Shown: positions 17,123 to 55,894, counted from the stretch's first letter. The stretch: DNA of 64,000 nt from Minisyncoccia bacterium (GCA_038244685.1 JBBRTD010000003.1:3944-67943), one strand, 5' to 3'. Program-made: numbers and translations. The notes: generated by a model not told the origin, from the sequence alone.

Positions 17123-17127
17123 TATAA

Positions 17128-18228: not shown

Positions 18229-18382
18229 TCTAAATAAAATAAGCTTATATTTGTTATACTAATTAATATTAAATTAATATTTTTGTGATATAACACTTGT
18301 GAATATGTATACCTATTATTAACCTGCTTATCTTGTTTTTTTACAAAACAATACAAGATGCATAATATTGGAGGACCAAAAA

Positions 18383-35071: not shown

Positions 35072-35107
35072 GATAAAAGGCTCTAATTAGAGCTTTTTAT
35101 CTTTTTT
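35072..35107 (+). terminator. Terminator after rpmE
   Basis: gataaaaggctct-aatt-agagctttttatc hairpin (one G-U), then T6. Confidence 0.6.
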
Positions 35108-35123
35108 GGTATATAATAATGAA

Positions 35124-36095
35124 ATGAATTTAGACTTAGAACAACTTAAAAAGGATCATAAAACAAGTTACTTTGCTTTCGAATACGAACGCCTCTTGAA
35201 CGAAGAAGAGAAAGTAAATGAAATGGTAACAGGGGACGAAAGTCTTCGTGATTTAGCAGAAGAAGAAATTCAAAATATTAAATTTCAAAAAGATGCTATT
35301 GAGCGTCAAATTGAAGAGATGGTTAAATCAGAAAAAGAAGATGAAGAATTTCCAAATGAAATTGTTCTTGAGGTTAGAGCTGGAGCTGGAGGAGATGAAG
35401 CTTCACTTTTCGCTTGGGAATTAGCTCACATGTATGAAAGATTTGCTGAGATAAATAGATGGCACTGGAAAGTACTAAATGAATCTACCAGTAGTGCCGA
35501 TGGATACAAAGAAGCTTCTTTCGAAATAAAAGGTAAGGATGTCTACAAACTTCTTCGTTATGAGACAGGTGTTCATCGTGTCCAACGCGTTCCTTCGACA
35601 GAAAAAAATGGCAGAATTCATACTTCGACAGCTTCAGTTGCTATTTTGCCGATTCGTACAAAAGTAAAAATTGAAATAAACCCAAGCGATTTAGAAATAG
35701 AATATTCACGTAGTGGGGGTGCGGGAGGGCAAAATGTTAACAAAGTTGAAACAGCAGTTAGACTAATACATAAGCCAACAGGTATAGATGTCCGATGTAC
35801 AACAGAGAGAAATCAGCTTGGAAATAGAGAGAAGGCTTTTATGATTCTATCATCGAAATTACAAATGATGGAAGATGAAAGAGAAGCAAGTAAATACTCT
35901 GAAAATCGCAAAAATCAGATAGGCACGGCGGACCGAAGTGAAAAAATACGTACATATAATTTTCCTCAAGATAGAGTAACAGACCACCGCATTAAACAAT
36001 CTTGGTCAAATATTCCAGGCATTATGGAGGGTAATATAACTAAAATAATAGAAGCAGTTTCTTTGGGGGAAATGGGAAATGATGAAGAAGAATAA
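35124..36095 (+). CDS. prfA: Peptide chain release factor 1
   Basis: GGQ motif [14 protein letters not shown] tripeptide (RVPSTE) indicates RF1 rather than RF2. TATAAT 7 nt upstream of ATG 35124; track ORF starts at TTG 35106. Confidence 0.85.
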
Positions 36096-36158: not shown

Positions 36159-36425
36159 TTGTCCTTTGTCATAAAAAATAAATATATTAATATTAAATAT
36201 AAATTCATAATGCAAATGAAAATAGTTCCCGTATGTATTTCTTCCGTAACAGATAAGATCTTCAGTAAAAATGTCTTATCAAAAATAACAACTATTTTTG
36301 TTTTAAGTTTAATATTAATCACATCTCTCTTTGCTATTTTCCCAAACCAAGCTCAAGCTGTTTGGACAGAAAGAACGACAGCTGGCTCTAGAAATTGGCT
36401 GTCTATCGCATCATCAGCAGATTGA
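36159..36425 (+). CDS. Signal-peptide-bearing N-terminal fragment of giant Asp-box/FN3 surface protein, terminated by in-frame TGA (likely start ATG 36210)
   Basis: Signal peptide ...ITTIFVLSLILITSLFAIFPNQAQA, then first repeat WTERTTAGSRNWLSIASSAD. TGA 36423-36425 sits where GGA(Gly) occurs in all other repeats. Same frame as 36537..45047. Confidence 0.55.
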   Translation: MSFVIKNKYINIKYKFIMQMKIVPVCISSVTDKIFSKNVLSKITTIFVLSLILITSLFAIFPNQAQAVWTERTTAGSRNWLSIASSAD

Positions 36426-36536
36426 ACTAAACTTGCGGCAGTTGCAAAACCTGGATATATATATACATCTACTAATAGTGGAGTATCTTGGACAGAAAGG
36501 ACAACAGCTGGCTCAAAAAATTGGCAATCAATTGCT

Positions 36537-39500
36537 ATGTCCTCTGACGGAACTAAATTAGTTGCTGCGGTTTTTGGTGGCGATATTTATACCTCGACAG
36601 ATAGTGGAGCGACCTGGACAGATAGAACTGGTGCCGGTTTAAGAAATTGGTATTCCGTTTCTTCTTCATCAGATGGAACTATATTAATGGCAGCTAATGA
36701 TGATGGATGGTGGGCTTCATATATTTACACATCAGAAGATAGTGGTGCCACTTGGACACAGCAAACTGGGACGGGTGCTAATCATTTTTGGAGAGCTACA
36801 GCAATATCAGCAGATGGATCCAAAATGGTAGCTGTTGCAAATAATGATAATATTTACATATCAAATAATACAGGGTCAACTTGGATAAAAACTGACTCAA
36901 GTCTTATAACTTGGACATCAGTTACTATGTCTTCTGATGGAACTAAACTAGCTGCAGTTGCTGGTGCTCCGTATCAATATGGTAATCCTAGTTACTATGT
37001 CTATACATCTATTGATGGTGGAACAACTTGGCTAGAACAGACTGGATCTACAAAAACATCATCTAGATTTTCTATTGCTTCTTCTGCTGATGGAACTAAA
37101 TTAGCTACTGCTGATTATGGTATTTATTCGTCGGGTGATTATATAAACAAATCTAACGATAGTGGAACTACTTGGTCAACACAAACAACTGCAGGACAAA
37201 GATTATGGAAATCTATTGCTACATCTGCCGATGGATCAAAATTAGCTGCTGTTGCTTATGGTGGATATATTTATACTTACACACCTACCTTAACTTCAAC
37301 AATAACAACAGACGTTAATTCATCTCTAACTCAAACATCTACTATACTAAATGGAACTATTACAAATATTGGAGAAGAAAATCCAAGTATTAGAGGTTTC
37401 GAGTATGGATTAACTACAGGATACGGAACAACCACAGTAGATAATGGTTCCTTTGGTGTTGGTTCTTTCAGTAAAGATATTACATCGCTATCTTGTGGAA
37501 CTTTGTATCATTTCCGTGCTTATGCGACTAATAGTGGAGGTAAGGCAATAGGAGGTGATCAAACTTTTACAACAAATCCATGTACTTACCCATTACTAAG
37601 TACTAATTCTGCTTCTTCTATATCTTTAACAGGAGCTACTTTAAATGGAAATATTTCAAATATTGGACAAGATAATTCTACAGTTAGAGGATTTCAATAT
37701 GGATTAACAATAAGTTACGGAACAACGACAACAGAGAATGGATCTTTTGCTACAGGAGCTTTTACTTCTGATATTGTTGGTCTAAATTGTGGAAATACTT
37801 ACCACTTCCGTTCATATGCCACTAACTCAATAGGTACTGGTTATGGAGATGATTTAACTTTCGCAGCAAGTAATTGTTCATCTGCCGGTTGGGTTCAGAG
37901 AACAAGTGCTGGGATAAATCCTTGGATGTCAGTTACTACATCAGCAGACGGAACCAAATTAGCTGCGACTTCAAATAATAATGGTAATGGATATATTTAT
38001 ACTTCAACAGATAGTGGTGTCACTTGGACACAAAGAACAGGTGCAGGTTTTAAATTTTGGACATCAATTGCTTCATCTGCAGATGGAACTAAACTAGCTG
38101 CTGCTGTTTACAATGATTATATTTATACATCAACAGATAGTGGGGCCACTTGGACACAGCAAACTGCTCCAGGAATTAAAAATTGGATGAAAATTATTTC
38201 ATCAGCAGATGGAATGATTCTAGGTGCGTGGAATACAAGTGACGGAAGATTTAGTACATCAATAAATGGTGGAGTTGCATGGACAATACAATACGGGGCA
38301 AGTTCAGTTGGAATAGGAGCAAACGTAACAATGACTCCTACTGGAGATAAAATGGCAGGATCTTATGATGGTAATATTTCTTATATTTCTACTTCAAGTA
38401 ATTCTGGTGTTACCTGGACAAAACAATTAAATTCCGACGAACGTAGTTGGAGTGGAATAACAATTTCTTCTAATGGAACTAAAATTGCAGTAACTTCAGG
38501 TGGAATGTCCAATCTTGGTTATATTTTTACATCGACAGACAGTGGAGTAACCTGGACACAGAGAACAAGCGCGGGGAATTTAAAATGGATGGATATTGCT
38601 TCATCCTCTGATGGAAATACATTGATTGCAACAACATTTAATGGTTACATGTATTTATCTAGAGATTCTGGAAATACTTGGATAGAACAAACATCTACAG
38701 GCATAAAATACTGGAAGGATATTTATTCTTCATCAGATGGAAGTAAATTTATAACAATTGGATGTGATACAAATTGCTATATTTACACTTACGAACAAGC
38801 CCACCTTTCAACATTAGATACAAACCCTGCAACCTCCATTCTTTCAAACGCAGCTACTTTAAATGGTTATATTTCTAATACAGGAGGAGAAGTTTCAAGT
38901 GTGAGAGGATTTGAATATGGTATAGATACAAGTTATGGAAAAAATACAATTGAAAATGGATCATTTGGAATTGGTGCGTTTACAAAAAATGTTTCAGCTT
39001 TAATTTGTGAGACCACATACCATTACCGTTCATATACCACAAATGGTGGCGGAAATTCATATGGGGCAGATCAAACATTTACTACTGGTACATGTTCTGG
39101 TATTCCCGTTATGTTAACAAGCGCCGCTTCAAATATATCTCCAACCTCAGTTACCTTAAATGGTGATATTACTGATATCGGATTAAGTAGTCCTACAATA
39201 AGAGGGTTTGAATATGGACTAACAACAAACTATAGTGCATCAAACATAGGTAATGGTACATTTGGAGTTGGTGCATTTTCAAAAAATGTCTCAGCTTTAA
39301 TTTGTGGTTCTACTTATCACTATCGTTCATTTGCTACAAATACCACAGGAACAGGTTATGGACAAGACTTAACATTCAATACAAGTCCTTGTATTTATCC
39401 TTCACTATCTACCAATACTGCAACATTAGTGACTTCTATTTCTGCTACTTTAAATGGATCTATTTCAAATACAGGAGGAGTAAATCCTACAGTTAGAGGT

Positions 39501-42500
39501 TTCGAATATGGAACAACAATAAGTTATGGAACAACTGTAAACGAAAGTGGTACATTTGGAATTGGATCATATACTAAAAATACTACAGGACTTACTTGTG
39601 CAACTCTATACCACTATCGTGCTTATGCAACGAATAGTAACGGAACAGGGTCGGGGAATGATCAAACATTTACCACAGGAACATGTTCTGGAATTTCAAC
39701 ATTAACAACAGAATCAGCAAATTTAATTTCATTAAACTCTGCAACTCTAAATGGAACCATTACAAATACAAGCGGTGAGAATCCAACAGTTCGCGGTTTT
39801 GAATATGGAACAACCATAAGTTACGGAACATCAACAATTGAAAGTGGTTCATTTGGAATTGGAGCTTATATAAAAAACGTTAATACTTTAACTTGTGGAA
39901 CTCTATACCACTATCGTTCATATGCCACAAATAGTGGAGGAAGCGGTTATGGTAACGATCAGACATTTACCACAGGAACTTGCTCTGGTATTTCAACGTT
40001 AACAACAGAAGCAGTATCTACTCTTACTTCAACTTCTGCTACATTAAATGGAACTGTCACTAATACAAATGGTGCTAATCCTACAATTCGAGGTTTCGAA
40101 TATGGAACAACAATAAGTTATGGAACAACTGTAAATGAAAGTGGAACATTTGGAATTAGTAGTTACTCAAAAGATATTTCTTCTCTAACTTGTGCAACCC
40201 TATACCACTTCCGTTCATATGCCACAAATAGCGTTGGAACAGGTTATGGTAATGATCAAACATTTACCACAAACAGTTGTACATACCCTGACTTAACAAC
40301 TACATATGCAACATCAATTGTTAAAACTGCAGCCACACTAAATGGATCTATTTCAAATACAGGAGGAGTAAATCCTACAATTAGAGGATTCGAATATGGG
40401 TTAGATACTAGTTATGGAACTCAAGTAAACGAAAGTGGTTCATTTGGAATTGGATCATACTCTAAAAATATTTCTTCTTTAACCTGTGGAACTCTATACC
40501 ACTATCGTTCATATGCCACAAATGCCAATGGTACAGGAAATGGTAATGATCAAACATTTACTACTGGTACTTGTTCTGGAACAATAGGATGGACGGCTCA
40601 ATATAATATAGGAGCAAAAACGTGGTGGGCAATTGCCTCTTCCACTGATGGAACAAAATTAGCAGCAACAGCCATAAGTGATTATATTTATACTTCTACA
40701 GATGGTGGTTTAAACTGGACGGCACAAATAAATTCAGGAATAAATGGTTGGTATTCAATAGCATCATCTTCTGATGGTAATAAATTAGTTGCAATTGGCT
40801 CTGACTTCAGTGGTTGGGGATATATTTATACATCAACAGACAGCGGAGTGACCTGGACAAAAAGAGTGAGCGCTGGTAATCGTACATGGGGTACTGTGGT
40901 CTCATCTTCAGATGGAACTAAACTAGCAGCAGCTGTTAATAATAGCGATGTATATACTTCTACAGATAGCGGAGCCACATGGACAGAAAGAACAGGAACA
41001 GGTTCACACTACTGGGGAACTGTTGCCATGACTTCATCTGCCGATGGAATGAAATTAGCAATAGTTTATTACAACGGTTTAATTCAAACATCAGTAGACG
41101 GTGGAGCAACTTGGACAGCCCAAGCAAATTCTGGAATGCTTGGATGGTCAACTATAGTTTCATCTGCTGATGGAAATAAATTAGCTGCAGCAACTTCCAA
41201 TAGCTATATTTATACATCTATTGACAGTGGAGTAAATTGGACCGCTCAAACTAATTCAGGAGCAACTCACTACTTTAGAAATATGTTTTCATCTCCAGAT
41301 GGTTCAATATTATTTGCCTTAGATAATAGTTCTACAAATAGCTATATTTATAAATCCATAGACAGCGGAGTGACTTGGACAACTGATGCTATTGCTGGGT
41401 CTAAAAGATGGCAAACATTATCCTCATCCTCAGATGGATCTAAATTAGCAGTTGCAAATTCGAGTGATTATTATATTTATACATATGGAGATATAAATAT
41501 GCCTAAGCCGACAGTAGATACAGCTGTTATTACAGGAGTAAGTACGGTAACACTTAATGGATTTGTTGATACAGATAACACAACTCGAGGATTCCAATAT
41601 GGACTAACAACAAGTTATGGAAATACAACAACAGAAAATGGAACATTTAATTATGGACCAATGACTGCAAATATTTCAGGAATTACGCCTGATGTTACTT
41701 ACCATTTCCGTTCGTATGCGACAAATTTATCTGGAACTGCGTATAGTGAAGACAATATATTTGTTCTTAAATACCAAAACTGGACACCAAATACTATTGT
41801 TGGCTCTCGTTATTGGAGTGCAGTAGCTTCATCATCTGATGGAAATAAATTAGTTGCAGTGGTTCAAGGTGGATATATTTATACATCAACTGATGGCGGA
41901 ACAACTTGGACAGAAAGAAATGGCGCAGGTTCCAGACAGTGGAAAGCAGTTGCCTCATCAGCTGATGGAACAAAACTTGTAGTGGCCAATGGAAGCAATG
42001 GCTTTATATATACATCGACAGATAGCGGAGTTAATTGGACACTAAGAACTTCTTCAGGATTATACTGGTGGATGTCACTTACATCATCATCTGATGGAAC
42101 AAAATTAGCCGCGACGACAGGGAATGGTACGGGATATATTTTCACATCAGCAGATAGTGGAGCAACTTGGGTACAACGTTCAGTTTCCGGTTCCCATAGT
42201 TTTAATTCAATTATTTCTTCAGCAGATGGAACTAAATTAGCAGCAACTGCTTACAGTGATTATATTTATACATCAACTGACAGTGGAGCAACCTGGGTGC
42301 AGAGAACAAATTCAGGTTCTCATAGTTTTTATTCAATTGCATCATCTGCCGATGGAACGAAATTAGCAGCAGCTAGTCATGATTTAAGTGGTTATATTTA
42401 TACATCAACCGACAGTGGAGCAACATGGGTAAAAAGAACAAGTGCAGGTATACGCACTTGGACATTAATTACTTCATCTTCCGATGGAACAAAATTAGCT

Positions 42501-45047
42501 GCAATTGATATAAAAACTTCGACAAGTACTGGCTATATTTATATATCAAATGATAGTGGAGCAAATTGGATAGCTGAAGCAAGTGCAAGTACTCGTGCTT
42601 GGACTTCGTTAACCTCATCAGCTGATGGAAGTAAATTAATTGCAGGAGTAAGTAGTAATTATTTATATTCTTATTCTCTACCAACTTCTCCAATTGTTAA
42701 AACAAACTCAGTAACACTTTCAACTGGAACATCTGTAACTCTAAATGGTCAAATAATAGATAATAAAGGTGACAATTCTACTGTCAGAGGATTCCAATAT
42801 GGATTAACAACAAGTTATGGAACTACAACATTGGAAAATGGATCATTCGGAGTCGGAACTTTTTCAACAAATCTAACAGGTCTTACCGCAAATACTACTT
42901 ATCACTATCGTTCTTATGCAACAAATTCACTTGGGACAAGCTACAGTGATGATGCAACTTTTGAAATAAAACCATTCGTCGAACAAATCACTTCTGGTAA
43001 GCATTATTGGTATGCAATTACTTCATCTTCCGATGGAACAAAATTAGCTGCAGTTGATTACGGTGGAAGTAGTACAGGAAGTATATACACATCAACAGAC
43101 AGTGGCGCCAACTGGACACAAAGAACAACTTCTAATTCACATAAATGGCTATCTATTACTTCATCTGCAGATGGAACTAAATTAGCAGCAGCTGCTTATC
43201 CTGGGTATATTTATACGTCACTCGATAGTGGAGTAACATGGGTAGAGCAGACAAATTCTGCATCATGTAATTGGAATGGGATTACTTCATCTACCGATGG
43301 AATAATTCTTGCTGCAATTGGAACTAATTGTATTTATACATCAGAAGATAGTGGTGATACTTGGACATCAAGGAATAATTCAGGACTTAACGGGGGAAAT
43401 TCAATTACTTCATCTTCAAACGGAATAAAAATGGCAGCAACTAATGGATTAGGTTATATATACATATCAGGAGATAGTGGTACAACTTGGACCGCTCAAA
43501 CAAGCTCAGGTTCACATACATGGCGTTCAATAACTTCATCTGCCGATGGAACAAAATTAGCTGCAATAGATTATCTTGGAACTGGAAGTGGTGGTTATAT
43601 TTATACATCAACAGATAGTGGTGTTACTTGGACGCAACAAACAAATTCTGGAGCTCGATATTGGATGTCAATTACATCATCGACTGATGGAACGAAATTA
43701 GCAGCAGTAGTTAATAATAATTATATTTATACCTCAGTAGATAGTGGAGTTACTTGGACACAACAATCAAGTGGAGGCTTACGTACTTGGTATTCCATTA
43801 CTAGTTCATACGACGGAATTAAAATAATTGCCGCAGCTTCAAATAGTAATATTTTTACCAATACTATTCCAGAAGTTCCATTAGTAAATACGCAAGATGC
43901 ATCTTCAGTTACGGTTAGTTCCGCGGTTTTAAATGCAACCATTGAAAACTTGAGCGGAGAATATCCAATCAGTAAAGGATTTGAATATGGATTAGACACA
44001 AGCTACGGAAGCACTGTTATTATAAATGGAGTATCAAGCCAGAGATCATATGCGATGGACGTAACAGCACTAGCAGAAGATACAACTTATCACTATAAAA
44101 GTTATGCTACAAATACTGTCGGAACAGGTTTCGGAGATGATCAAACCTTCACCACAGCTTCTGTAGAAGAAATAACATCTTTCGATTCAATACCAAATAT
44201 TACTGGAGGATTAGCAGGAAGCCCTACTTATGTAGATGCAGCAGCTATAATCGCAATATTACCATCATCCGTAAAGGCAAATAGTAATGCCGCGACAGTT
44301 CCTGTAACTTCATGGACAAACACTGATTTATATAATACAAATATGCCAGGAAGTTATACATTTACAGCAACACTAGGATCAATCCCTGTAGGATTTGCAA
44401 ACTCTGGGAACTTCACAGCAACGATAGAAGTAATAATTGGAGGAGTTCCTGTTACTGGTGGCAAAATCGAGATAAGAGGCGGTGGAGGTGGTGGATCTTC
44501 AACAAGTACAGTTTATATTGATCAGAAAAAGGATCCAATTCTTCCATCACTACCGAAGTCTGACCTAGAATTAAATTCTATAACAGCACAAGGATGTATA
44601 CCTGGAGGTTTATTCAGTGTAACAACAGGTAAACCATGTACAGGAATAACTCCAATTACACAAGAAGAAAAGACTACAACTGTTAAAACTATTATAGATA
44701 ATAGCCAAATAATAACTAAAACAATTACAGGATGCACAACAGGATCTTTATTCAACATAATATCAGGAGAGCCATGCAGTACAATAAATACAATTCAACC
44801 TTTAGACTCTGTATCTAAAAGCACCAGCTCTCTTGTCTTCACTAAATTGATTAAAATCGGAAGTAGAAGTGCTGATGTCAAAAAAATACAAACATATTTA
44901 AATGCAAGAGGTTTTGATTGTGGAATTGTAGATGGTTACTTTGGCTTCAAGACCAAAAGTAGTCTGATAAATTTCCAAAAAATGAATAAATTAACTCCAG
45001 ATGGAACAGTAGGGAAGATAACAATTCGGGCAATGAATAGTATTTAA
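36537..45047 (+). CDS. Giant (2836 aa) cell-surface protein: 5 blocks of BNR/Asp-box beta-propeller repeats alternating with 11 FN3-like domains, C-terminal Cys-motif and PG_binding_1 anchor
   Basis: About 35 S-x-D-x-G-x-T-W motifs on a ~42-aa period (YIYTSTDSGxTWT...SSxDGTKLAA). Eleven ~98-aa units ending ...YHYRSYATNSxGTGYGxDQTFTTGTCS. C-terminal GSRSADVKKIQTYLN...VDGYFGFKT...FQKMNKLTPDGTVG peptidoglycan-binding domain. Confidence 0.85.
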   Translation: MSSDGTKLVAAVFGGDIYTSTDSGATWTDRTGAGLRNWYSVSSSSDGTILMAANDDGWWASYIYTSEDSGATWTQQTGTGANHFWRATAISADGSKMVAVANNDNIYISNNTGSTWIKTDSSLITWTSVTMSSDGTKLAAVAGAPYQYGNPSYYVYTSIDGGTTWLEQTGSTKTSSRFSIASSADGTKLATADYGIYSSGDYINKSNDSGTTWSTQTTAGQRLWKSIATSADGSKLAAVAYGGYIYTYTPTLTSTITTDVNSSLTQTSTILNGTITNIGEENPSIRGFEYGLTTGYGTTTVDNGSFGVGSFSKDITSLSCGTLYHFRAYATNSGGKAIGGDQTFTTNPCTYPLLSTNSASSISLTGATLNGNISNIGQDNSTVRGFQYGLTISYGTTTTENGSFATGAFTSDIVGLNCGNTYHFRSYATNSIGTGYGDDLTFAASNCSSAGWVQRTSAGINPWMSVTTSADGTKLAATSNNNGNGYIYTSTDSGVTWTQRTGAGFKFWTSIASSADGTKLAAAVYNDYIYTSTDSGATWTQQTAPGIKNWMKIISSADGMILGAWNTSDGRFSTSINGGVAWTIQYGASSVGIGANVTMTPTGDKMAGSYDGNISYISTSSNSGVTWTKQLNSDERSWSGITISSNGTKIAVTSGGMSNLGYIFTSTDSGVTWTQRTSAGNLKWMDIASSSDGNTLIATTFNGYMYLSRDSGNTWIEQTSTGIKYWKDIYSSSDGSKFITIGCDTNCYIYTYEQAHLSTLDTNPATSILSNAATLNGYISNTGGEVSSVRGFEYGIDTSYGKNTIENGSFGIGAFTKNVSALICETTYHYRSYTTNGGGNSYGADQTFTTGTCSGIPVMLTSAASNISPTSVTLNGDITDIGLSSPTIRGFEYGLTTNYSASNIGNGTFGVGAFSKNVSALICGSTYHYRSFATNTTGTGYGQDLTFNTSPCIYPSLSTNTATLVTSISATLNGSISNTGGVNPTVRGFEYGTTISYGTTVNESGTFGIGSYTKNTTGLTCATLYHYRAYATNSNGTGSGNDQTFTTGTCSGISTLTTESANLISLNSATLNGTITNTSGENPTVRGFEYGTTISYGTSTIESGSFGIGAYIKNVNTLTCGTLYHYRSYATNSGGSGYGNDQTFTTGTCSGISTLTTEAVSTLTSTSATLNGTVTNTNGANPTIRGFEYGTTISYGTTVNESGTFGISSYSKDISSLTCATLYHFRSYATNSVGTGYGNDQTFTTNSCTYPDLTTTYATSIVKTAATLNGSISNTGGVNPTIRGFEYGLDTSYGTQVNESGSFGIGSYSKNISSLTCGTLYHYRSYATNANGTGNGNDQTFTTGTCSGTIGWTAQYNIGAKTWWAIASSTDGTKLAATAISDYIYTSTDGGLNWTAQINSGINGWYSIASSSDGNKLVAIGSDFSGWGYIYTSTDSGVTWTKRVSAGNRTWGTVVSSSDGTKLAAAVNNSDVYTSTDSGATWTERTGTGSHYWGTVAMTSSADGMKLAIVYYNGLIQTSVDGGATWTAQANSGMLGWSTIVSSADGNKLAAATSNSYIYTSIDSGVNWTAQTNSGATHYFRNMFSSPDGSILFALDNSSTNSYIYKSIDSGVTWTTDAIAGSKRWQTLSSSSDGSKLAVANSSDYYIYTYGDINMPKPTVDTAVITGVSTVTLNGFVDTDNTTRGFQYGLTTSYGNTTTENGTFNYGPMTANISGITPDVTYHFRSYATNLSGTAYSEDNIFVLKYQNWTPNTIVGSRYWSAVASSSDGNKLVAVVQGGYIYTSTDGGTTWTERNGAGSRQWKAVASSADGTKLVVANGSNGFIYTSTDSGVNWTLRTSSGLYWWMSLTSSSDGTKLAATTGNGTGYIFTSADSGATWVQRSVSGSHSFNSIISSADGTKLAATAYSDYIYTSTDSGATWVQRTNSGSHSFYSIASSADGTKLAAASHDLSGYIYTSTDSGATWVKRTSAGIRTWTLITSSSDGTKLAAIDIKTSTSTGYIYISNDSGANWIAEASASTRAWTSLTSSADGSKLIAGVSSNYLYSYSLPTSPIVKTNSVTLSTGTSVTLNGQIIDNKGDNSTVRGFQYGLTTSYGTTTLENGSFGVGTFSTNLTGLTANTTYHYRSYATNSLGTSYSDDATFEIKPFVEQITSGKHYWYAITSSSDGTKLAAVDYGGSSTGSIYTSTDSGANWTQRTTSNSHKWLSITSSADGTKLAAAAYPGYIYTSLDSGVTWVEQTNSASCNWNGITSSTDGIILAAIGTNCIYTSEDSGDTWTSRNNSGLNGGNSITSSSNGIKMAATNGLGYIYISGDSGTTWTAQTSSGSHTWRSITSSADGTKLAAIDYLGTGSGGYIYTSTDSGVTWTQQTNSGARYWMSITSSTDGTKLAAVVNNNYIYTSVDSGVTWTQQSSGGLRTWYSITSSYDGIKIIAAASNSNIFTNTIPEVPLVNTQDASSVTVSSAVLNATIENLSGEYPISKGFEYGLDTSYGSTVIINGVSSQRSYAMDVTALAEDTTYHYKSYATNTVGTGFGDDQTFTTASVEEITSFDSIPNITGGLAGSPTYVDAAAIIAILPSSVKANSNAATVPVTSWTNTDLYNTNMPGSYTFTATLGSIPVGFANSGNFTATIEVIIGGVPVTGGKIEIRGGGGGGSSTSTVYIDQKKDPILPSLPKSDLELNSITAQGCIPGGLFSVTTGKPCTGITPITQEEKTTTVKTIIDNSQIITKTITGCTTGSLFNIISGEPCSTINTIQPLDSVSKSTSSLVFTKLIKIGSRSADVKKIQTYLNARGFDCGIVDGYFGFKTKSSLINFQKMNKLTPDGTVGKITIRAMNSI
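38805..40572 (+). repeat. Tandem array of six ~294-bp FN3-like domain repeats with long near-identical DNA stretches
   Basis: Recurrent ggaactctataccactatcgttcatatgccacaaatag and caaacatttaccacaggaacatgttctgg segments at ~294-bp spacing. Confidence 0.7.
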
Positions 45048-45086: not shown

Positions 45087-48000
45087 TTGAAAAAATTCAA
45101 AAACCTAAAATTAATTTTCTCAGTTTTTATTAGTCTTCTTATTATTATAAGTAATTTAAATTCGCCAATTTTAGTAAATGGTGAAGATAATTTTAATTAT
45201 AATATTAAAAAAGAAGTAGGAATAAAAAATTATGCCGATGGAGAAATAATTGTAAAATTTAAAGATGACAAAGTAAAATTAGATACAACTTCTGGTAAAT
45301 TAAAAATGGCAACTCTTGCCCAAGATAACTCACTTGAAAAAAAAGAAGACCTAAAAGAGAATAATATTTCTGTTTTTAAAATCAAAGATAATAAAACAGT
45401 AGAAGAAAAAATAGCAGAATTAGAAAGTGATCCAAATGTTTTGTATGCTGAGCCCAACTACAAACGTTATCCAAGTTCTATTAGTACTAATGATACTAGC
45501 AAAAATTTACTATGGGGTCTTGATAATACAAGCCAAACAGTGAACAGCGTTTCGGGCACTCTCGACGCTGATATAGACGGACCAGAAGCTTGGGCAATTA
45601 ATGAAGGGACTAATTCTTCTGTAATCGTGGCAGTAATAGATACCGGTGTTGGATTTAATCATCCAGATATACTTGCAAATATGTGGGATGGAACAAATTG
45701 TAAAGATCAGCTGGGTAATTTTTTAGGAGGATGTAATCATGGTTATGACTACGAAAGCAATGATAAGATTCCATTACCACTAAGTAACTCTCACGGTACT
45801 CATGTCTCTGGTACAATCGCTGCTTTAAAAAATAATAGCAAGGGTATCATCGGAGTTGCACCAAATGCGAAAATAATGGCAATTAAATTTGGCTTTACTG
45901 TTAATGATGAAATAAAAGCAATAAATTTTGCTATTAAAAATGGAGCAAAGATAATTAATGCTAGTTTTGGAGGTAGCTCATTTTCACAATCTGAGTATGA
46001 TGCAATGAATCTATTCAAACAATCAGGCGGAATTTTTGTAGCAGCGGCAGGTAACGATGGTCTCGATAACAATACAATTCCTGTTTATCCTTCAAGTTAC
46101 GATTTAGACAATATCATATCAGTTGCAGCAACTGATCAAAATGATAGCCTTGCGACATTTTCAGACTACGGAACAACTTCAGTTGATGTTGGAGCTCCTG
46201 GTACAAATATTTTAAGTCTTATTACAGATACTGATGGTTCTGATGAAAAATATGGATATGGTAATGGAACTTCTATGGCAGCTCCTCATGTTGCAGGTCT
46301 TGCCGCATTAATCTGGGGAATGAGACCATCTCTTACTTACATCCAGGTCAAAAATATTATATTAAGTACTGGCGATTCGCTTCCGTCCTTAAATACTAAA
46401 ACTGTTTCAGGAAAAAGAATTAATGCATTTAATGCCTTAAATTATGTTTTAACTAATTATATTACTTATCCAACTGCTACTATTACTTACTCAGATACTG
46501 ACTTGATTGTAAAAGCTGGAGATTCATTAACTATTACAGCAAATTTAAATGAACCTGTACTAGACTCTCCATCATTAAAAATATCTATTAGTGGATCAAA
46601 TATATTAGCCCCAACCTTAATGACGAAGGTTAGTAATACGCAATATACATATATATATACAGTTAAAGAAGGGGATGGAATAGCTAATATTAATCTATCT
46701 AATGCAACAAATGCCGAAGGAAATTCTATTGTCAGCATTCCAAGCTCTGGCTCTTCTTTTACTGTTGATAATACAGCGCCAACAATATCAATTAGTTCTC
46801 CATCTGCATTATTTACCAAATCTGGACCTATTACATACATCGCAACATATACAGACGCTACTTCAATAACATTAGCTGATATAGATGTAACCCTAAATAC
46901 TACAGGAGGAGCCACTGGAACAATCAATGTTTCTCCAAACGATGAGACAACAAGAAAAATTTCAATTTCAAATATAAGTGGTGATGGAACACTAGGAATT
47001 AGTATAAATACAAACACTGCCTCTGACATAACTGGTAATATATCCCTATCAACAAGCCCAAGTGAAATTTTTACAGTTGATAATACTGCTCCTTTAAATC
47101 AAGATATAGTATTCAGCTCGTCTTTAAACAAAAAAGGTAGCAGTTTAATAAATATTGTTTCTTCAGAAAACATAAATAATAATGTATGGATTGCACCAGA
47201 AGGAACTAATTTATTTACAGAAAGTTCTACTATAACAAAAGCCATCAACGGCACAGCTCTGAGTATCTTAGCCCCAGAAAGCGAAGGTGTTTATAAAATA
47301 TTTATAATTGATGAAGCTGGTAATATTTCTGCTCCATCTCTATCAACTCTAACCATAGATAATACTGCCCCTTTGATGCCTACAATAACATCAATAGCGA
47401 ATGATAATAAAATTAGTTATGAAGAAAAAAATTCTATTCACATAACAGGAATAGCTGAAGCTAACTCACTTGTAACAATATCTTTAACCGATAATATAAA
47501 TACAAAAGTTGGAACACAACAATTAATAAATAATAATACAAATTATGATATTGAAATTATAGGGTCAGAAGCTATTCCTTCGGCACTTATTGATGGCACA
47601 ATATACATTACAGCTACATCTACAGATGAAGTTGGAAATATTTCCCCAATAAATAATTTAAATGTTGTTCAATCTCCACAAATTATAGTTACAAATAGTG
47701 GAGGCGGTGGGGGTGGTGGTAGCTCGAGTTATACTACACCAACAATTAATCCAATTATAACAACCGCAATACCAACACCGTTGATTAGTCAAACTGCAAT
47801 ACCAGGATGTGACACTATGTCATTATTTAGTACAATCACAGGTAAGTCATGCGGAAATACAAACATAGCACCAATATTTAATACGGATACAAATAAAGAG
47901 ACTCCCGTTTTATATAATATTACTAAAACATTAAAACAAGGTAATAATAATAATGAAGTTAAGGTATTACAAAAATATTTAAATTCAAAAAGTTACTATA

Positions 48001-48146
48001 TATCGCTATCAGGTCCAGGTTCTATTGGCAAAGAGACAACATTATTCGGTCCTGCAACAAAAAAAGCGCTTATTAAATTCCAGAAAGCTAATAAATTAAA
48101 GGCTGACGGAGTAGCAGGAGCTATAACCAGAAGTCTAATTAAATAA
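45087..48146 (+). CDS. Secreted subtilisin-like (S8) serine protease with I9 propeptide, Ig-like (TVDNTAP) repeats and the same C-terminal Cys-motif + PG_binding_1 anchor
   Basis: Catalytic triad motifs VIDTGV (Asp), HGTHVSGTIAA (His), GTSMAAPHVAGLAAL (Ser). TTG start with signal peptide. C-terminal GGGGGGGSSS...GCDTMSLFSTITGKSCG...EVKVLQKYLN...FQKANKLKADGVAG. Confidence 0.85.
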   Translation: MKKFKNLKLIFSVFISLLIIISNLNSPILVNGEDNFNYNIKKEVGIKNYADGEIIVKFKDDKVKLDTTSGKLKMATLAQDNSLEKKEDLKENNISVFKIKDNKTVEEKIAELESDPNVLYAEPNYKRYPSSISTNDTSKNLLWGLDNTSQTVNSVSGTLDADIDGPEAWAINEGTNSSVIVAVIDTGVGFNHPDILANMWDGTNCKDQLGNFLGGCNHGYDYESNDKIPLPLSNSHGTHVSGTIAALKNNSKGIIGVAPNAKIMAIKFGFTVNDEIKAINFAIKNGAKIINASFGGSSFSQSEYDAMNLFKQSGGIFVAAAGNDGLDNNTIPVYPSSYDLDNIISVAATDQNDSLATFSDYGTTSVDVGAPGTNILSLITDTDGSDEKYGYGNGTSMAAPHVAGLAALIWGMRPSLTYIQVKNIILSTGDSLPSLNTKTVSGKRINAFNALNYVLTNYITYPTATITYSDTDLIVKAGDSLTITANLNEPVLDSPSLKISISGSNILAPTLMTKVSNTQYTYIYTVKEGDGIANINLSNATNAEGNSIVSIPSSGSSFTVDNTAPTISISSPSALFTKSGPITYIATYTDATSITLADIDVTLNTTGGATGTINVSPNDETTRKISISNISGDGTLGISINTNTASDITGNISLSTSPSEIFTVDNTAPLNQDIVFSSSLNKKGSSLINIVSSENINNNVWIAPEGTNLFTESSTITKAINGTALSILAPESEGVYKIFIIDEAGNISAPSLSTLTIDNTAPLMPTITSIANDNKISYEEKNSIHITGIAEANSLVTISLTDNINTKVGTQQLINNNTNYDIEIIGSEAIPSALIDGTIYITATSTDEVGNISPINNLNVVQSPQIIVTNSGGGGGGGSSSYTTPTINPIITTAIPTPLISQTAIPGCDTMSLFSTITGKSCGNTNIAPIFNTDTNKETPVLYNITKTLKQGNNNNEVKVLQKYLNSKSYYISLSGPGSIGKETTLFGPATKKALIKFQKANKLKADGVAGAITRSLIK

Positions 48147-48343
48147 TATATTCCTTGCATTGTTTTTATATGTCTGTTATAATAAGGAAAGTAGTTAGCT
48201 TATGTTTTGGTATTAGTTTCACATTCTTCGTGTTTTAAACATTGAGGTCTGTAAATGAAATCAGCTATGCGATTACATTTATAAATTAGTTTTCTTCAAT
48301 TAGACGATATGAAAGTATCCCTATGAGAAGCATATTGTCATAT

Positions 48344-48634
48344 ATGGCAAAAAAGTTGTATGTAGGTGGTCTTCCTTATAAGACTACCAATGATGAGCTT
48401 AAGTCTCATTTCAGTGCTGCCGGAGCTGTCGCTTCAGCAACAATTATCATGGATAAAATGACTGGCCGTTCAAAAGGTTTCGGTTTCGTAGAAATGGAAA
48501 ACGATTCTGATGCTGCTACAGCTATCTCAATGTTTGATGGTAAGGATTACGATGGACGTAATCTTACAGTTAACGAAGCTCGTCCTATGGAAGAGCGTCC
48601 ACAAAATGGTGGAGGTTTCCGTGGAAACAGATAA
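48344..48634 (+). CDS. RRM-type RNA-binding protein with Gly-rich tail
   Basis: RNP-2 LYVGGL and RNP-1 KGFGFVEM. C-terminal GGGFRGNR. Start ATG 48344. Confidence 0.8.
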   Translation: MAKKLYVGGLPYKTTNDELKSHFSAAGAVASATIIMDKMTGRSKGFGFVEMENDSDAATAISMFDGKDYDGRNLTVNEARPMEERPQNGGGFRGNR

Positions 48635-48654
48635 TTAACTTTATCTAAAACAAA

Positions 48655-48688
48655 AAATCCCCAACTCGCAAGAGTAGGGGATTTTTTG
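48655..48688 (+). terminator. Terminator after RRM protein gene
   Basis: aatccccaactc-gcaa-gagtaggggatt hairpin, then T6. Confidence 0.65.
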
Positions 48689-48763
48689 TATCTTTGACAT
48701 ATCTTAATATAAATTGTAATGTAAATATGAAATATTGAATATTAACATTGTAAAAAAGTTAGA

Positions 48764-49162
48764 ATGAGAATTAAAATTAATCTGGAAGACTTAACTCTTT
48801 ATCTTCAGAAGAAAAAGAGTATTGGAAAAGATCAGAAAGTATATTCTGTATCAATTTCTAATCCCAAAAAATCTCTGATTGTAGTTGTCACAAGTGAAAA
48901 TGCTATCTCTCTCAAAAAAGAAGAGGAGCCATTACGACAGCTAAACGACGAGGAAATGCTTGAAATGTTAAGCAGGCCCATATTTGACCTGGACGTTTCA
49001 GTTCGAACAATGGGAATACTAAGAATAACAGGGCTCAAAACACTAAGAGATGTTATATCTAGAGATGAGAAATTTTTCAGGAAATACCGAGGTTTTGGAA
49101 ATCTATCGGTAGATGAACTAAAAAAAACACTAAGACAGAAGGGGTTAAAACTAACTGTTTAA
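48764..49162 (+). CDS. Stand-alone protein with RNA polymerase alpha-subunit C-terminal-domain-like HhH fold
   Basis: LSRPIFDLDVSVRTMGILRITGLKTLRDVISRDEKFFRKYRGFGNLSVDELKKTLRQKGL aligns with RpoA CTD (LLRPVDDLELTVRSANCLK...GKKSLTEIKDVL). Only 132 aa. Confidence 0.5.
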   Translation: MRIKINLEDLTLYLQKKKSIGKDQKVYSVSISNPKKSLIVVVTSENAISLKKEEEPLRQLNDEEMLEMLSRPIFDLDVSVRTMGILRITGLKTLRDVISRDEKFFRKYRGFGNLSVDELKKTLRQKGLKLTV

Positions 49163-49184
49163 ATTAATTTAAATTTGTATCATC

Positions 49185-49331
49185 ATGGCTACGACTTTGA
49201 AGCAAAAGAAGAGAAGAAGATTGAGAAACAAAGCGAAAAAAGCAAAAGAAAACAACGTTTGGTATGATTATCATTATGATAAAGCCCAAAATGAAATATT
49301 CTTTACTTATCCTAAAAAGAAAGCCAGATAA
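49185..49331 (+). CDS. Unannotated 48-aa highly basic small protein
   Basis: ATG..TAA ORF MATTLKQKKRRRLRNKAKKAKENNVWYDYHYDKAQNEIFFTYPKKKAR. Followed by two stem-loop/T-run terminators (49323-49348, 49358-49382). Below the ORF-track size cut-off. Confidence 0.3.
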   Translation: MATTLKQKKRRRLRNKAKKAKENNVWYDYHYDKAQNEIFFTYPKKKAR

Positions 49332-49380
49332 CCTCTGGTTTTTTTATTTTATATAACCATAGCCTTCTGTGGTTTTTTGT

Positions 49381-49409
49381 TTGCAAAATAGGGGATTTTT
49401 TGATATAGT
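49381..49409 (+). promoter_or_regulatory. Sigma70-like promoter upstream of tRNA-Ile/atp operon
   Basis: TTGCAA-N17-TATAGT. Confidence 0.35.
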
Positions 49410-49483
49410 TCTTATGTTCTTTTAATGTTTTAAAGAGAACCTTACTTCTTGTATAGTTGTCAGCAATAAACGTGAAATTTCAT

Positions 49484-49555
49484 GCGTGTGTAGTTCAGTG
49501 GTAGAACGCTGTCCTGATAAGACAGAGGTCCTTGGTCCGATTCCAAGCACACGCA
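49484..49555 (+). tRNA. tRNA-Ile (anticodon GAU), T-loop UCCGAUU (C55 instead of U)
   Basis: Acceptor GCGUGUG/CACACGC. D-arm GUUC-AGUGGUA-GAAC. Anticodon stem CUGUC/GACAG with loop CUGAUAA. T-stem CUUGG/CCAAG. Confidence 0.75.
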
Positions 49556-49579
49556 CAAGGCTTTAAGCCTTTTCTTTTT

Positions 49580-49861
49580 ATGGATAATGATAAAGAAAAA
49601 TTAAACAAAGAAGCCCCTTGGTGGCAAGAAGGAGTCATTACTTTTGCAAAAGTTAGTGCTTCCATCGCAGTTCCGATAGTTATTGCTTTATATTTAGGTA
49701 AATATCTGGATAATAAATACAATACTGAACCCTGGATTTTTCTTTCATTAACTTTTATAGCATTTATCATATCCTTAGTTTCTATCTGGATTAATATGAT
49801 GAAGTATATTAAAGATCTAGAAAGCAAAGAAAAGTCTTCCAAAGACAAGATAATAAAATAA
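49580..49861 (+). CDS. ATP synthase protein I-like (AtpZ/AtpI) 2-TM protein
   Basis: 93 aa, two hydrophobic helices, immediately 5' of atpB. Start ATG 49580 follows a hairpin/T-run after the tRNA. Confidence 0.5.
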   Translation: MDNDKEKLNKEAPWWQEGVITFAKVSASIAVPIVIALYLGKYLDNKYNTEPWIFLSLTFIAFIISLVSIWINMMKYIKDLESKEKSSKDKIIK

Positions 49862-49864
49862 TTT

Positions 49865-50809
49865 ATGACAACAATAGTTAGTACAGAAGAATTAAATACA
49901 GCAGAAGTTAAACAGCCTCAAGAAATAAATACAACTGGGGTTGCCTTAAAACCTGAGACAGAAGAAGTAACAAGCGAATCTACATTATTTGCTGAACCTA
50001 TTGCTCATTTTGGTTCTTTTACTGTTACAAATTCTCTTTTCACAAGCTGGGTAGTAGTTTTCATTCTTATTGTTATATCTATTGTAGTTAGAACAAGAAT
50101 AAAAAAAATACCCAAAGGAATTCAAAATTTATTTGAAATATTAATAGAAGAAGCACACTCTTTATGCGACCAAGTCACAAGTAGTCGTATTATTACGAAT
50201 AAAGCTTTTCCTATTGTCTTTGCAATTTTTATGTTTGTCCTTCTTAATAACTGGGTAGGAATTCTTCCATTGGGAGGTTTCGGACTTATAGAGATCGGGG
50301 AACACGGCAAAACATTTATTCCACTTTTCAGAAGTGGTACTGCGGATATAAACGGAACACTGCCTCTCGCTATCATGTCTGTTATTGGTGCAAATATATT
50401 TGGAATAATTTCTATTGGTTTATGGAAAACTATAAATAAATACGTTAACCTTACAGCACTTGGAGGTATCTTCACAAAAGTTAAAAAAGACCCATCAATC
50501 CTCATGACAGCTCCTATTGTCTTTGCTGTTGGATTGCTTGAGCTTGTCGGAGAGTTTGCAAAAGTCGCATCACTTTCCTTTCGTCTCTTTGGTAATGTAT
50601 TTGCCGGAGAAGTATTACTTGCCTCAATGGGTGCAATTATAGCCTATGTCCTTCCTACACCATTTTTACTACTAGAAGTATTAGTGGGTGTGATACAAGC
50701 ATTTATTTTCGCCATTTTAACCCTTGTTTATTATACAATCTCAAGCATGGACCATGAGGAACATGAAGAAGAGCATAGTAAAGAGGGAAAATTAAGTGGG
50801 GCACATTAA
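49865..50809 (+). CDS. atpB: F0 ATP synthase subunit a (His/Glu-rich C-terminal tail)
   Basis: Conserved SFRLFGNVFAGEVL with essential Arg. C-terminal MDHEEHEEEHSKEG. Confidence 0.85.
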   Translation: MTTIVSTEELNTAEVKQPQEINTTGVALKPETEEVTSESTLFAEPIAHFGSFTVTNSLFTSWVVVFILIVISIVVRTRIKKIPKGIQNLFEILIEEAHSLCDQVTSSRIITNKAFPIVFAIFMFVLLNNWVGILPLGGFGLIEIGEHGKTFIPLFRSGTADINGTLPLAIMSVIGANIFGIISIGLWKTINKYVNLTALGGIFTKVKKDPSILMTAPIVFAVGLLELVGEFAKVASLSFRLFGNVFAGEVLLASMGAIIAYVLPTPFLLLEVLVGVIQAFIFAILTLVYYTISSMDHEEHEEEHSKEGKLSGAH

Positions 50810-50831
50810 TTTAAAGGTCAATCATTATTAA

Positions 50832-51062
<231 letters not shown>

Positions 51063-51155
51063 TTTTTACTATTTACATCTGGCCATTTGTTTCTATCGCA
51101 AATGACTAGGAGTAAGAAGCCAAAACTTCTGTAGATTAAAAATTAACATTTTTTT

Positions 51156-51647
51156 ATGGATTCATTTATAAATACATTTCACATAGATTGGAAAATAATA
51201 GTAGCGCAAAGTATAAACTTCGTAATAGTTCTTTTTGTTTTAAATTTTTTAATTGTAAAACCACTCAAGAAAATGATGAAAGAAAGATCATTAACAATTG
51301 CTGGTGGATTAGATGATGCAACAAAAAACAAAGAATTACTAAAGAATACAAAGAAAGAGTATGATGAAGTTATCCTAAAGGCACGTGAAGAAGCTCATGC
51401 TATTTTCCAAGAAGGCAAGCGTGAAGCAGAAGACAAAAAAAAGAAGATGATAGAAGCTGCACACAGTGAAATCGAAGAGATGATTTCAAATGGCAAAAAA
51501 ACTCTAGAATCAGAAAAAATTAAAATGGTAGAAGAGGCCAAAAAAGAAATTGTTTCTTTGGTGGTAAAAGCTACAGAGAAATTACTTGAATCTCATAAGG
51601 ACGAATCTTTTAACAATAAGGCAATAGAGCAAATCAAAAAGCTTTAA
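51156..51647 (+). CDS. atpF: F0 ATP synthase subunit b
   Basis: Single N-terminal TM plus long charged helix. Operon position. Confidence 0.8.
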   Translation: MDSFINTFHIDWKIIVAQSINFVIVLFVLNFLIVKPLKKMMKERSLTIAGGLDDATKNKELLKNTKKEYDEVILKAREEAHAIFQEGKREAEDKKKKMIEAAHSEIEEMISNGKKTLESEKIKMVEEAKKEIVSLVVKATEKLLESHKDESFNNKAIEQIKKL

Positions 51648-51653
51648 AAGTAT

Positions 51654-52061
51654 ATGGCAAGTATTTCAATTAAAAATTTAGCAAGTGCTATATATGAATC
51701 ATCTTCAGACAAAGATGGGGTTCTATTAGATTCCATCATCAAGAAAAGCGCCACATTCATAAGGGATAAGAATTTGCTGGGTAAAAAAGATGAAATATTA
51801 AAAGCCCTTGAGGAGATAGTCAATAAAGAAAATGGTGTAGTTAAAGTTAAAATTACAACAAGCGAAAAATTACAAGAAGACATCAAGACTGAAATTGAAG
51901 AATTCGTTAAAAAAAAGTACAAAGCAAATGAAGTAGAAATAGAGTCCAAAGAAGACAAAAAATTACTTGGTGGAATAAAAATAGAGATAGGAGACGATAT
52001 AATAGACACCACATTATTAAACAAGATACATCAATTACAAAATTATTTAATCACAAACTAA
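51654..52061 (+). CDS. atpH: F1 ATP synthase subunit delta (short form)
   Basis: OSCP C-terminal [25 protein letters not shown]. 135 aa. Confidence 0.75.
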
Positions 52062-52062
52062 T

Positions 52063-53565
52063 ATGACCAAAAATCACATCGTAGAAAATTTAAGAAAACA
52101 AATAGAAAAATTCCAAGGAGACTTGAAAGTTGAAAAAGTTGGACATGTAGTTGAGATATTTGATGGTATCGCTAAAGTATCTGGACTTGCTGATTTGAAG
52201 GCCTCTGAAATGGTATCTTTCGCAAGTGGAGCAAAGGGAGTAGCCTTAAACTTAGAAGAAGATACTGTCGGTATTATTATCCTTGGTGACTTTTCAAAAA
52301 TTCATGAAGGGGAGGAAGTGAAGGCGACAGGCCAAATTCTTTCTGTTCCTGTAAGTGACCTACAAATAGGTAGAGTTCTAAATGCATTAGGAGATCCTAT
52401 TGACGGTAAGGGTGCAATAAAAACTGACAAAAGAAATCCTATTGAAAAAGTTGCTCCAGGGGTTATTACTCGTCTCTCTGTTGATCAGCCAGTTCAAACT
52501 GGTATTAAGGCCATCGATGCTCTTATTCCAATCGGCCGTGGACAACGTGAGCTTATCATTGGTGACCGTCAGACAGGAAAGACAGCCATTGCTATAGATG
52601 CAATCTTAAACCAAAAAGGCCAAAATATGATTTGTGTTTACGTTTCTATTGGTCAGAAAGATTCAAAGTTACGAAAATTAGAGACTCGATTAGAAGAAGG
52701 TGGAGCTATGGCTTATACTATTATAGTTTCAGCCGGTGCTTCAGAACCTGCCGCACTTGCATACATTGCTCCATATACAGGAGTTTCTATTGCTGAGTTT
52801 TTCATGGATCAAGGAAAAGATGTCTTAATTATTTATGATGATTTATCAAAGCATGCTGTAGCATATCGTGAAATATCATTATTACTACGTCGACCTCCAG
52901 GACGTGAAGCTTACCCAGGAGATGTTTTTTACTTACACTCAAGACTACTTGAGCGTGCTTGCCGAAGAAATAAAGAATACGGGGGAGGTTCTATTACAGC
53001 ACTACCTATTATTGAAACTCAAGCTGGAGATGTCTCTGCTTATATTCCTACAAACGTTATCTCCATTACTGATGGACAGATATTCCTAGAAACAGATTTA
53101 TTCTACAAAGGTATTCGCCCTGCTGTAAACGTTGGACTTTCTGTTTCTCGTGTTGGTTCATCTGCTCAGATTAAGGCTATGAAGAAAGTGGCGGGTAAGA
53201 TTAAACTAGACTTGGCTCAGTTCCGCGAACTTGAGGCCTTCTCACAATTCGGTTCTGACTTAGACGAAGGAACAAAGAAGCAGCTAGAACGAGGTAAAAG
53301 AGCCGTAGAAGTATTAAAACAACCTCAATATTCACCAGTTGGAACTGTTGACCAAGTTGTAATTCTTTATGCTCTTATCAACGGATTCATAGATGAAGTT
53401 AAAATCGATAAAGTAAAAGAATTTGAAATAGGATTATCTGATTACGCATCCAGAAATGCAAAAACATTTTATAAAGAAGTCACAGAAACAAGAATGTGGA
53501 CAGAGGTAGGAGAAGCTGAGTTAAAGAAAGCAATTGAAGAATTCGTCACAAGTTTTAATAAATAA
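52063..53565 (+). CDS. atpA: F1 ATP synthase subunit alpha
   Basis: Walker [12 protein letters not shown]. Alpha-specific C-domain. Confidence 0.95.
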
Positions 53566-53570
53566 AAAAA

Positions 53571-54491: not shown

Positions 54492-54502
54492 ATTATTATT
54501 AA

Positions 54503-55894
<1,392 letters not shown>

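Follow-up and report, generated by a model that had tools for sequence, protein, structure and literature searches.

Length-variable repeat adhesins of bacteria, such as the streptococcal Rib/alpha-like proteins and the staphylococcal SasG/Aap proteins, are encoded by DNA repeats that are nearly identical, vary in number between strains and undergo concerted evolution. Another group of bacterial surface proteins, the fibrillar adhesins, combines a signal peptide with a stalk of serial β-sandwiches of ~100 amino acids (tandem fibronectin type III [FN3]- or immunoglobulin [Ig]-like domains), putative binding globules and a wall anchor. Here, we analyzed a 64,000-nucleotide stretch from a Minisyncoccia bacterium (GCA_038244685.1, JBBRTD010000003.1:3944-67943), hereafter called the window, in which an open reading frame (ORF) at positions 36537 to 45047 encodes a giant protein where 11 FN3-like units accompany five β-propellers. 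Six of these units form a tandem array at about positions 38806 to 40589. A preliminary description of this DNA had regarded the array as a likely hotspot of recombination and length variation. The gene, all of its domains and the protease gene that follows it lie on the plus strand.

We consider it probable that the repeats are six ancient, individually conserved FN3-like domains, which form a stalk of fixed length in a giant surface protein tethered to the cell wall. Since all relatives found agree in their number of units, and since the units are old and well diverged, the array does not behave as a length-variation hotspot. This reading draws on what was observed of the repeats and their fold, on their constant copy number, on orthology by position, on the selection statistics and on the domain architecture. 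The G+C content is ~33%, and the closest genome is a Candidatus Paceibacteria metagenome-assembled genome (MAG). Judged from its sequence, the protein appears to belong to a bacterium of the Paceibacteria, within the Candidate Phyla Radiation (CPR), and to be a large surface protein of adhesin-like build. In the literature on CPR bacteria, no specific description of such a protein type turned up.

Anatomy and fold of the FN3-like units

The units were located by anchoring on the motif [RK]GF[EQ]YG, and the array was delimited through the repeat family D2 together with pairwise identities. As seen in the window, six units follow one another head to tail and in frame: U3 (38806 to 39102), U4 (39103 to 39396), U5 (39397 to 39693), U6 (39694 to 39990), U7 (39991 to 40284) and U8 (40285 to 40589), with which the array ends. 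Their starts are spaced by 297, 294, 297, 297 and 294 nucleotides, in agreement with the six tandem units of ~294 bp previously reported. The repeats are well above chance, as 100 shuffles gave 0 matches. Besides the array, two more copies of the D2 family begin at 37294 and 37588, and in total the protein holds 11 units, with U1 and U2 adjacent, U3 to U8 adjacent, and U9, U10 and U11 standing singly.

The DNA of the array had been described as near identical, for which about 90% identity or more was taken as the measure; this did not hold, since pairwise identity among U3 to U8 is 62 to 77% at the nucleotide level and 46 to 74% at the protein level. U4 is the most divergent member, with 46 to 54% amino acid identity to the others, and Tandem Repeats Finder recognized U5 to U8 only (3.8 copies at 39441 to 40579, with 74% matches). 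The longest exact runs between units measure 46 nucleotides (U5/U7), 41 nucleotides (U5/U8) and 39 nucleotides (U6/U8). Two strings had been quoted as long runs common to the repeats. The 30-mer does occur exactly twice, at 39903 and 40494, and a third time with 2 mismatches; the 26-mer is found exactly only once, at 39666, its other copies carrying 2 or 3 mismatches. The closer relationship reported for units 5 to 8 was confirmed, as U5 to U8 share 65 to 74% of their amino acids among themselves versus 35 to 64% with U1 and U2 and 37 to 54% with U9 to U11.

To describe the fold, U5 and U6 were modeled jointly with AF2 from an alignment (A1) of 24 two-unit segments taken from the window and its orthologues. 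The model consists of two seven-stranded sandwiches (mean pLDDT, 77.9), and the top 50 matches retrieved from the PDB with Foldseek were all tandem FNIII domains, from LAR, neogenin, Ihog, PTP-delta, titin and fibronectin (E value of about 1e-7; probability, 1.00). Likewise, the A1 profile searched against PDB sequences found a titin FnIII domain at 4e-8. Pfam fn3 (PF00041; gathering score, 25 bits) gave no match to single units at an E value of 10 or less, and its best score was 16.9 bits, for U1-U2; sub-threshold matches were seen in 14 of the 24 two-unit segments, the best with an E value of 0.0066. The FN3-like assignment of the preliminary description is thus upheld as an assignment of fold: as modeled, the units are FN3-like, yet too divergent for the Pfam model.

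The characteristic motif of the E-F loop and strand F, LxPxTxYxxR(V/A)xA, which contains the Tyr corner, was recognized in U1 to U8 as L-x-C-x-T-(L/T)-Y-H-(Y/F)-R-(S/A)-Y-A-T-N, and the Tyr-corner sequence of U9 reads ITPDVTYHFRSYATN. The Tyr, His, Arg and Asn residues of the Tyr corner are invariant in A1, as are both Cys residues. In U1 to U8, the first Cys, located in the E-F loop, stands in for the canonical Pro of LxPxTxY, and the second lies 4 to 5 residues past strand G. Among family members that lack a Cys in the column of the first one, Pro is the commonest residue there. In 973 units from 72 non-orthologous proteins of the family, 127 have both Cys residues, 12 have one and 834 have none. 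Because the two residues co-occur so tightly across the wider family, the Cys pair of U1 to U8 probably forms an intradomain disulfide, which would staple the beginning of the linker to the E-F loop. The two Cys residues that had been attributed to each unit are a property of U1 to U8, with none in U9 to U11; moreover, the first motif reads LxC[G/A/E] and not strictly LxCG, and the second Cys is found in TCSG or PC(I/T)YP.

Conservation of the array and alternative explanations

A search of 5.8 billion proteins returned three full-length relatives of the giant protein, all at full coverage: P0002 (80% identity), P0003 (71%) and P0004 (70%). Including the window gene, the orthologue set comprises four genes from four species and six assemblies; in the case of P0002, and likewise of P0004, two different metagenome samples yielded the protein in unchanged form. 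Searches for further orthologues in genome contigs and metagenome contigs, and with the array alone as a protein query, brought up nothing but distant relatives, none of them above 60% identity. The relatives share a syntenic neighborhood formed by PfkB, FBP aldolase, L25, SLT_2, L31, RF1, the giant gene and the S8 protease.

All four genes carry 11 units arranged as 2+6+1+1+1, with successive spacings of 98, ~403, 99, 98, 99, 99, 98, ~400, ~400 and 396 amino acids. An extra unit was considered in P0002, which is 100 amino acids longer, and was rejected, as the difference corresponds to an N-terminal region that the window protein loses through an in-frame TGA. Uniform copy number, which the preliminary description had itself named as telling against a hotspot, is thus what the comparison gave, with six array units in every orthologue. 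The units of the window are 66 to 96% identical to their positional orthologues versus 47 to 74% to their best paralogues. In a neighbor-joining tree of the 32 U1 to U8 sequences, the eight positional clades received bootstrap values of 89, 99, 71, 100, 50, 93, 91 and 47%, and clades joining the array units of one genome received 0%. The units accordingly group by position and not by genome, which is not the pattern of concerted evolution. Across the wider family, a hidden Markov model (HMM) of the unit recognized 76 of 120 homologues as carrying units, with 1 to 42 in each protein, and layouts of propellers and FN3 units were seen with 1, 2, 3, 4, 5, 6 or more units per spacer.

Synonymous divergence (pS) between paralogous units is 0.41 to 0.68 (0.41 to 0.52 within U5 to U8), as high as between species. 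Together with the positional clustering, this level does not agree with the recent unit duplications that had been proposed. Between orthologues, pS is 0.41 to 0.53 in the array, 0.35 to 0.70 in the rest of the gene and 0.40 to 0.72 in RF1, L25, SLT_2 and S8. The other outcome named beforehand as speaking against a hotspot, a synonymous divergence in the array comparable to that of the flanks, was also found. The ratio of nonsynonymous to synonymous divergence (dN/dS) is 0.12 to 0.19 in the array, 0.09 to 0.38 in propellers 1 to 4, with the distal propellers reaching up to 0.38, and 0.02 to 0.13 in propeller 5, U10 and U11. As a side observation, the giant protein is 81% and 71% identical to its orthologues in the related loci L001 and L003, versus 97 to 98% for the adjacent RF1 (35106 to 36095); as a whole, it evolves much faster than its neighbors.

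If the repeats are indeed a stalk of fixed length, the duplications that gave rise to the array would predate the divergence of the four sampled species. The array would since have evolved under purifying selection and at a fixed copy number, apart from rare gene conversions, short and in register, between units that closely resemble each other. The protein would be exported by its putative N-terminal Sec signal and held on the peptidoglycan by its C-terminal PG_binding_1 domain. The six-unit run would act as a spacer that separates two distal propellers from three wall-proximal ones. FN3 domains contribute about 3.5 nm each, and the stalk would therefore measure roughly 20 nm (6 × about 3.5 nm). 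Such an arrangement would place a variable tip, facing the ligand, at the end of a conserved scaffold, matching the gradient of constraint from the distal to the wall-proximal parts.

Several observations weigh against this reading. When thirds of units were compared, three local departures from positional orthology appeared, indicating that units occasionally recombine. In L003 (P0004; 4007 to 4597 and 5192 to 5779), U3 shares 85% identity with U8 in its 3′ third, versus 69% with its orthologues; about nucleotides 147 to 265 of the unit look overwritten by U8-like sequence (85 to 90% identity, versus ~69% to orthologous U3), the clearest such tract in the family. At the related locus L002, U6 and U8 share 93% identity in their 3′ thirds, versus 80 to 85% with their orthologues. 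The third case concerns U5 of the window, whose middle third is 81% identical to U7 versus 75% to its orthologues, coinciding with the 46-nucleotide exact run. The exact inter-unit runs of 39 to 46 nucleotides also surpass the usual minimum for RecA-dependent exchange. In addition, the pS values lie near saturation, so they bound the ages of the units from below only, and the stability of the array rests on four orthologous genes (six assemblies), such that rare copy-number variants may occur within populations. The dN/dS of the array, below that of several propellers, could mean that the units have specific binding roles and are not passive spacers. Finally, with the premature TGA, the window protein may not be exported in this genome at all.

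The tracts themselves are gene conversions, short and in register, between those units that resemble each other most (U3/U5/U6/U8), and none of them changed the unit number. What remains of the proposed recombination and length-variation hotspot is a weak remnant, in the form of these few conversion tracts and of the range of 1 to 42 units per array among distant family members; in the four orthologues, the count is the same. In its full form, the idea of a contingency locus holds that recently duplicated, near-identical units expand and contract by slipped-strand or unequal recombination, thus tuning adhesin length or antigenicity, and we judge it very unlikely. The head-to-tail, in-frame units of similar size, the few long exact runs between them (39 to 46 nucleotides), the conversion tracts among U3, U5, U6 and U8, and the range of 1 to 42 units per array across the wider family would all suit such a locus. 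However, the units are only 62 to 77% identical at the nucleotide level, copy number and unit lengths are constant in four orthologues despite near-saturated synonymous sites, identical proteins come from independent samples, clustering is by position and never by genome, and purifying selection is strong (dN/dS, 0.12 to 0.19). Even less weight goes to an assembly artifact, in which the number or order of repeats would stem from short-read assembly of a repetitive gene. The window is probably metagenome assembled, given that its nearest relatives are MAGs, and the unexpected in-frame TGA could be a consensus error. Nevertheless, because the units differ at 23 to 38% of their nucleotides and no exact run exceeds 46 nucleotides, assemblers have unique paths through the array, and six independent assemblies, from four species, agree in this architecture; such an artifact is thus extremely improbable.

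The main rival is that the six units are distinct ligand-binding modules, for a glycan or a host-surface protein, and that each position is conserved separately for this reason. FN3-like domains in bacterial glycoside hydrolases can contact the substrate, and the position-specific conservation (66 to 96% identity to the orthologue) and a dN/dS in the array (0.12 to 0.19) lower than that of propellers 1 to 4 (0.09 to 0.38) point in this direction. On the other hand, the units contain no recognizable binding motif or family, and Pfam gave nothing above threshold; in relatives, the unit recurs up to 42 times per array, as stalks typically show; and the invariant residues are those of the structural core (GFxYG, the Tyr corner YH.R.YA.N and the Cys pair). 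We regard binding modules as unlikely, if less so than the other alternatives, and favor the fixed-length stalk of six old domains.

Gene start, domain layout and neighboring genes

The ORF was called with translation table 11 as a protein of 2836 amino acids, identical in extent to the annotated product that matches the database protein P0001. This annotated protein begins at an internal ATG and has no export signal. The orthologues start ~109 amino acids further upstream, with a signal-peptide-like N terminus, and the window carries this sequence too, beginning with the ATG at 36210. In P0002 to P0004 and in the window, this N terminus has a K-rich n-region, a 19-amino-acid hydrophobic core and a terminal AQA followed by V. 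Based on the alignment with P0002 to P0004, the true 5′ end of the gene extends over 36210 to 36425 and encodes the putative Sec-type signal peptide (MQMKIV...PNQAQA, before VWTERT) and the first propeller blade, up to an in-frame TGA. Counted from the true start, the protein would comprise ~2,945 amino acids.

The TGA, at 36423 to 36425, replaces a Gly codon (GGA or GGG in the three orthologues) and separates the signal-like N terminus from the remainder of the gene. No other TGA in the window interrupts a long ORF, and this one is likely due to a recent nonsense mutation or to a base or consensus error and not to a variant genetic code. Recoding of UGA as Gly (genetic code 25) was considered and appears unlikely: this is the sole ORF-splitting TGA in 64 kb, the gene has 330 ordinary Gly codons, and TGA ends 3 of 46 ORFs. 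TAA ends 39 of the 46 large ORFs of the window. The release factor encoded upstream (35106 to 36095) is RF1 (prfA), with 376 bits versus 231 for the RF2 model, which is uninformative on an RF2 elsewhere; as listed, its ORF has a TTG start and 329 amino acids, and its orthologues have 323 to 325.

The giant protein is organized in the order P1-[U1 U2]-P2-[U3..U8]-P3-U9-P4-U10-P5-U11-Big_4-linker-PG_binding_1, where P1 to P5 are the propellers. Alignment of the inter-unit stretches (A2) revealed five homologous supermodules of ~400 amino acids, each with seven Asp-box blades (W..I.SS.DG.KL....YIYTS.DSG.TW) followed by FN3 units, numbering 2, 6, 1, 1 and 1 per module. Propeller 1 (36360 to 37307, placed by A2) is the one interrupted by the TGA. 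It is followed by the tandem pair U1-U2 (37308 to 37892), with two Cys residues in each unit, which was placed by motif anchoring and pairwise identity. Propeller 2 (37893 to 38805) and propeller 3 (40590 to 41501), both identified by domain search and A2, flank the six-unit array. The remaining units, placed by motif anchoring and identities, are single and devoid of Cys: U9 (41502 to 41792), which retains the canonical Pro in ITPDVTY, U10 (42702 to 42992) and U11 (43890 to 44180). They alternate with propeller 4 (41793 to 42701) and propeller 5 (42993 to 43889), both placed by A2, the latter being the best-conserved propeller (dN/dS, 0.07 to 0.12).

Propeller 4 was modeled jointly with U10, yielding a seven-bladed propeller and a β-sandwich (pLDDT, 89.7). 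The top PDB matches of this supermodule in Foldseek were GH74 xyloglucanases, an archaeal S-layer protein with a YVTN propeller and a PKD domain (1L0Q), Ycf48 and sortilin. In domain searches with the giant protein, Pfam Sortilin-Vps10 scored 105 bits and NCBIfam F510_1955 scored 195.6 bits (cut-off, 175). Downstream of U11 lie a Big_4-like Ig domain (44256 to 44375; Pfam, 24.3 bits with a cut-off of 22.1) and, past a poly-Gly run, two short Cys-loop motifs (C-x4-LF[SN]-x2-[TS]G-x2-C; 44595 to 44777). The protein ends with a PG_binding_1 domain at 44868 to 45035 (amino acids 2778 to 2833), whose score of 51.9 bits exceeds the Pfam cut-off of 23 and which would serve as the peptidoglycan tether.

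Directly downstream of the giant gene, a gene at 45087 to 48146 encodes a subtilisin-like S8 protease with a Fervidolysin-type prodomain, Peptidase_S8, Ig-like repeats and PG_binding_1. In its more general form, C-x4-[LM]F[SN]-x2-[TS]G-x2-C, the Cys-loop motif is present at 44595 to 44639 and 44733 to 44777 in the giant protein and at 47808 to 47852 in the protease; it always follows a poly-Gly run and precedes PG_binding_1, and it matched no Pfam family. To judge by this shared order, the poly-Gly run, the Cys-loop motif and PG_binding_1 look like a common wall-anchoring cassette at the C termini of both proteins. Since the position of the protease gene is conserved in L001 and L003, the protease may be a functional partner of the giant protein, for example in its processing.

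In L001, the S8 protease gene is followed by a third gene (15687 to 18660), which encodes a 1051-amino-acid propeller protein with PG_binding_1. The window is without it, and the interval from 48147 to 49860 instead holds a small RRM-type RNA-binding protein (48323 to 48634), a 132-amino-acid ORF and a tRNA (49484 to 49555). Next after the tRNA comes an ATP synthase operon (49865 to 55894).

Significance and comparison with known systems

On the reading that we favor, a striking tandem array turns out to be structural, old and stable, as opposed to a locus that varies in phase or length. This matters little beyond annotation, for which it provides a clean map of the domains of a giant surface protein from Paceibacteria, together with a co-located S8 protease that bears the same anchor cassette. 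Overall, this is an ordinary repeat protein, of mild interest for its coupled Cys residues and its frozen 2+6+1+1+1 layout. Proteins of this kind are candidates for the contact between CPR bacteria and their hosts, and the fastest evolution, in the distal propellers, points to the site of any host-specific interaction. One could go further and propose that the 2+6+1+1+1 pattern of FN3 units is a molecular ruler, which fixes how far each of the five propellers stands from the wall in an episymbiotic bacterium of ultra-small size, with a disulfide-stapled six-unit rod whose reach of about 20 nm is matched to its own envelope or to that of the host. If true, such a ruler would explain the frozen copy number alongside the fast-evolving distal propellers; as a proposal, it is speculative and rather improbable.

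Among described systems, the stalks of bacterial fibrillar adhesins resemble the giant protein in their serial β-sandwiches of ~100 amino acids, with a signal-peptide-like N terminus here in the place of the signal peptide, Asp-box propellers in that of the putative binding globules and PG_binding_1 in that of the wall anchor. The protein differs from them in that its units fall below the Pfam fn3 threshold and carry a coupled Cys pair, and in that runs of 2, 6, 1, 1 and 1 units are interleaved with five propellers, whereas those adhesins have one stalk with a single tip domain. With the Rib/alpha-like and SasG/Aap adhesins, the array shares the head-to-tail, in-frame repetition of a small β-sandwich in a wall-associated surface protein. 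Here, however, DNA identity is 62 to 77%, copy number is fixed in four species, and each position evolves independently.

The propellers have likenesses of their own. The archaeal S-layer protein 1L0Q (Foldseek rank 7; E value, 9e-12) likewise has a seven-bladed propeller followed by an Ig-like sandwich, but its blades are of the YVTN type and its sandwich is PKD, whereas the blades here are Asp-box/BNR and the sandwich FN3-like; sequence identity is 16%. The seven-bladed Asp-box (BNR) propellers of GH74 xyloglucanases, Ycf48/HCF136, sortilin Vps10 and F510_1955 share the SxDxGxTW blades and are among the top Foldseek matches, although this likeness concerns the propellers that flank the repeats and not the repeat array. 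GH74 enzymes, for their part, need two propellers, which form a catalytic cleft with two Asp residues.

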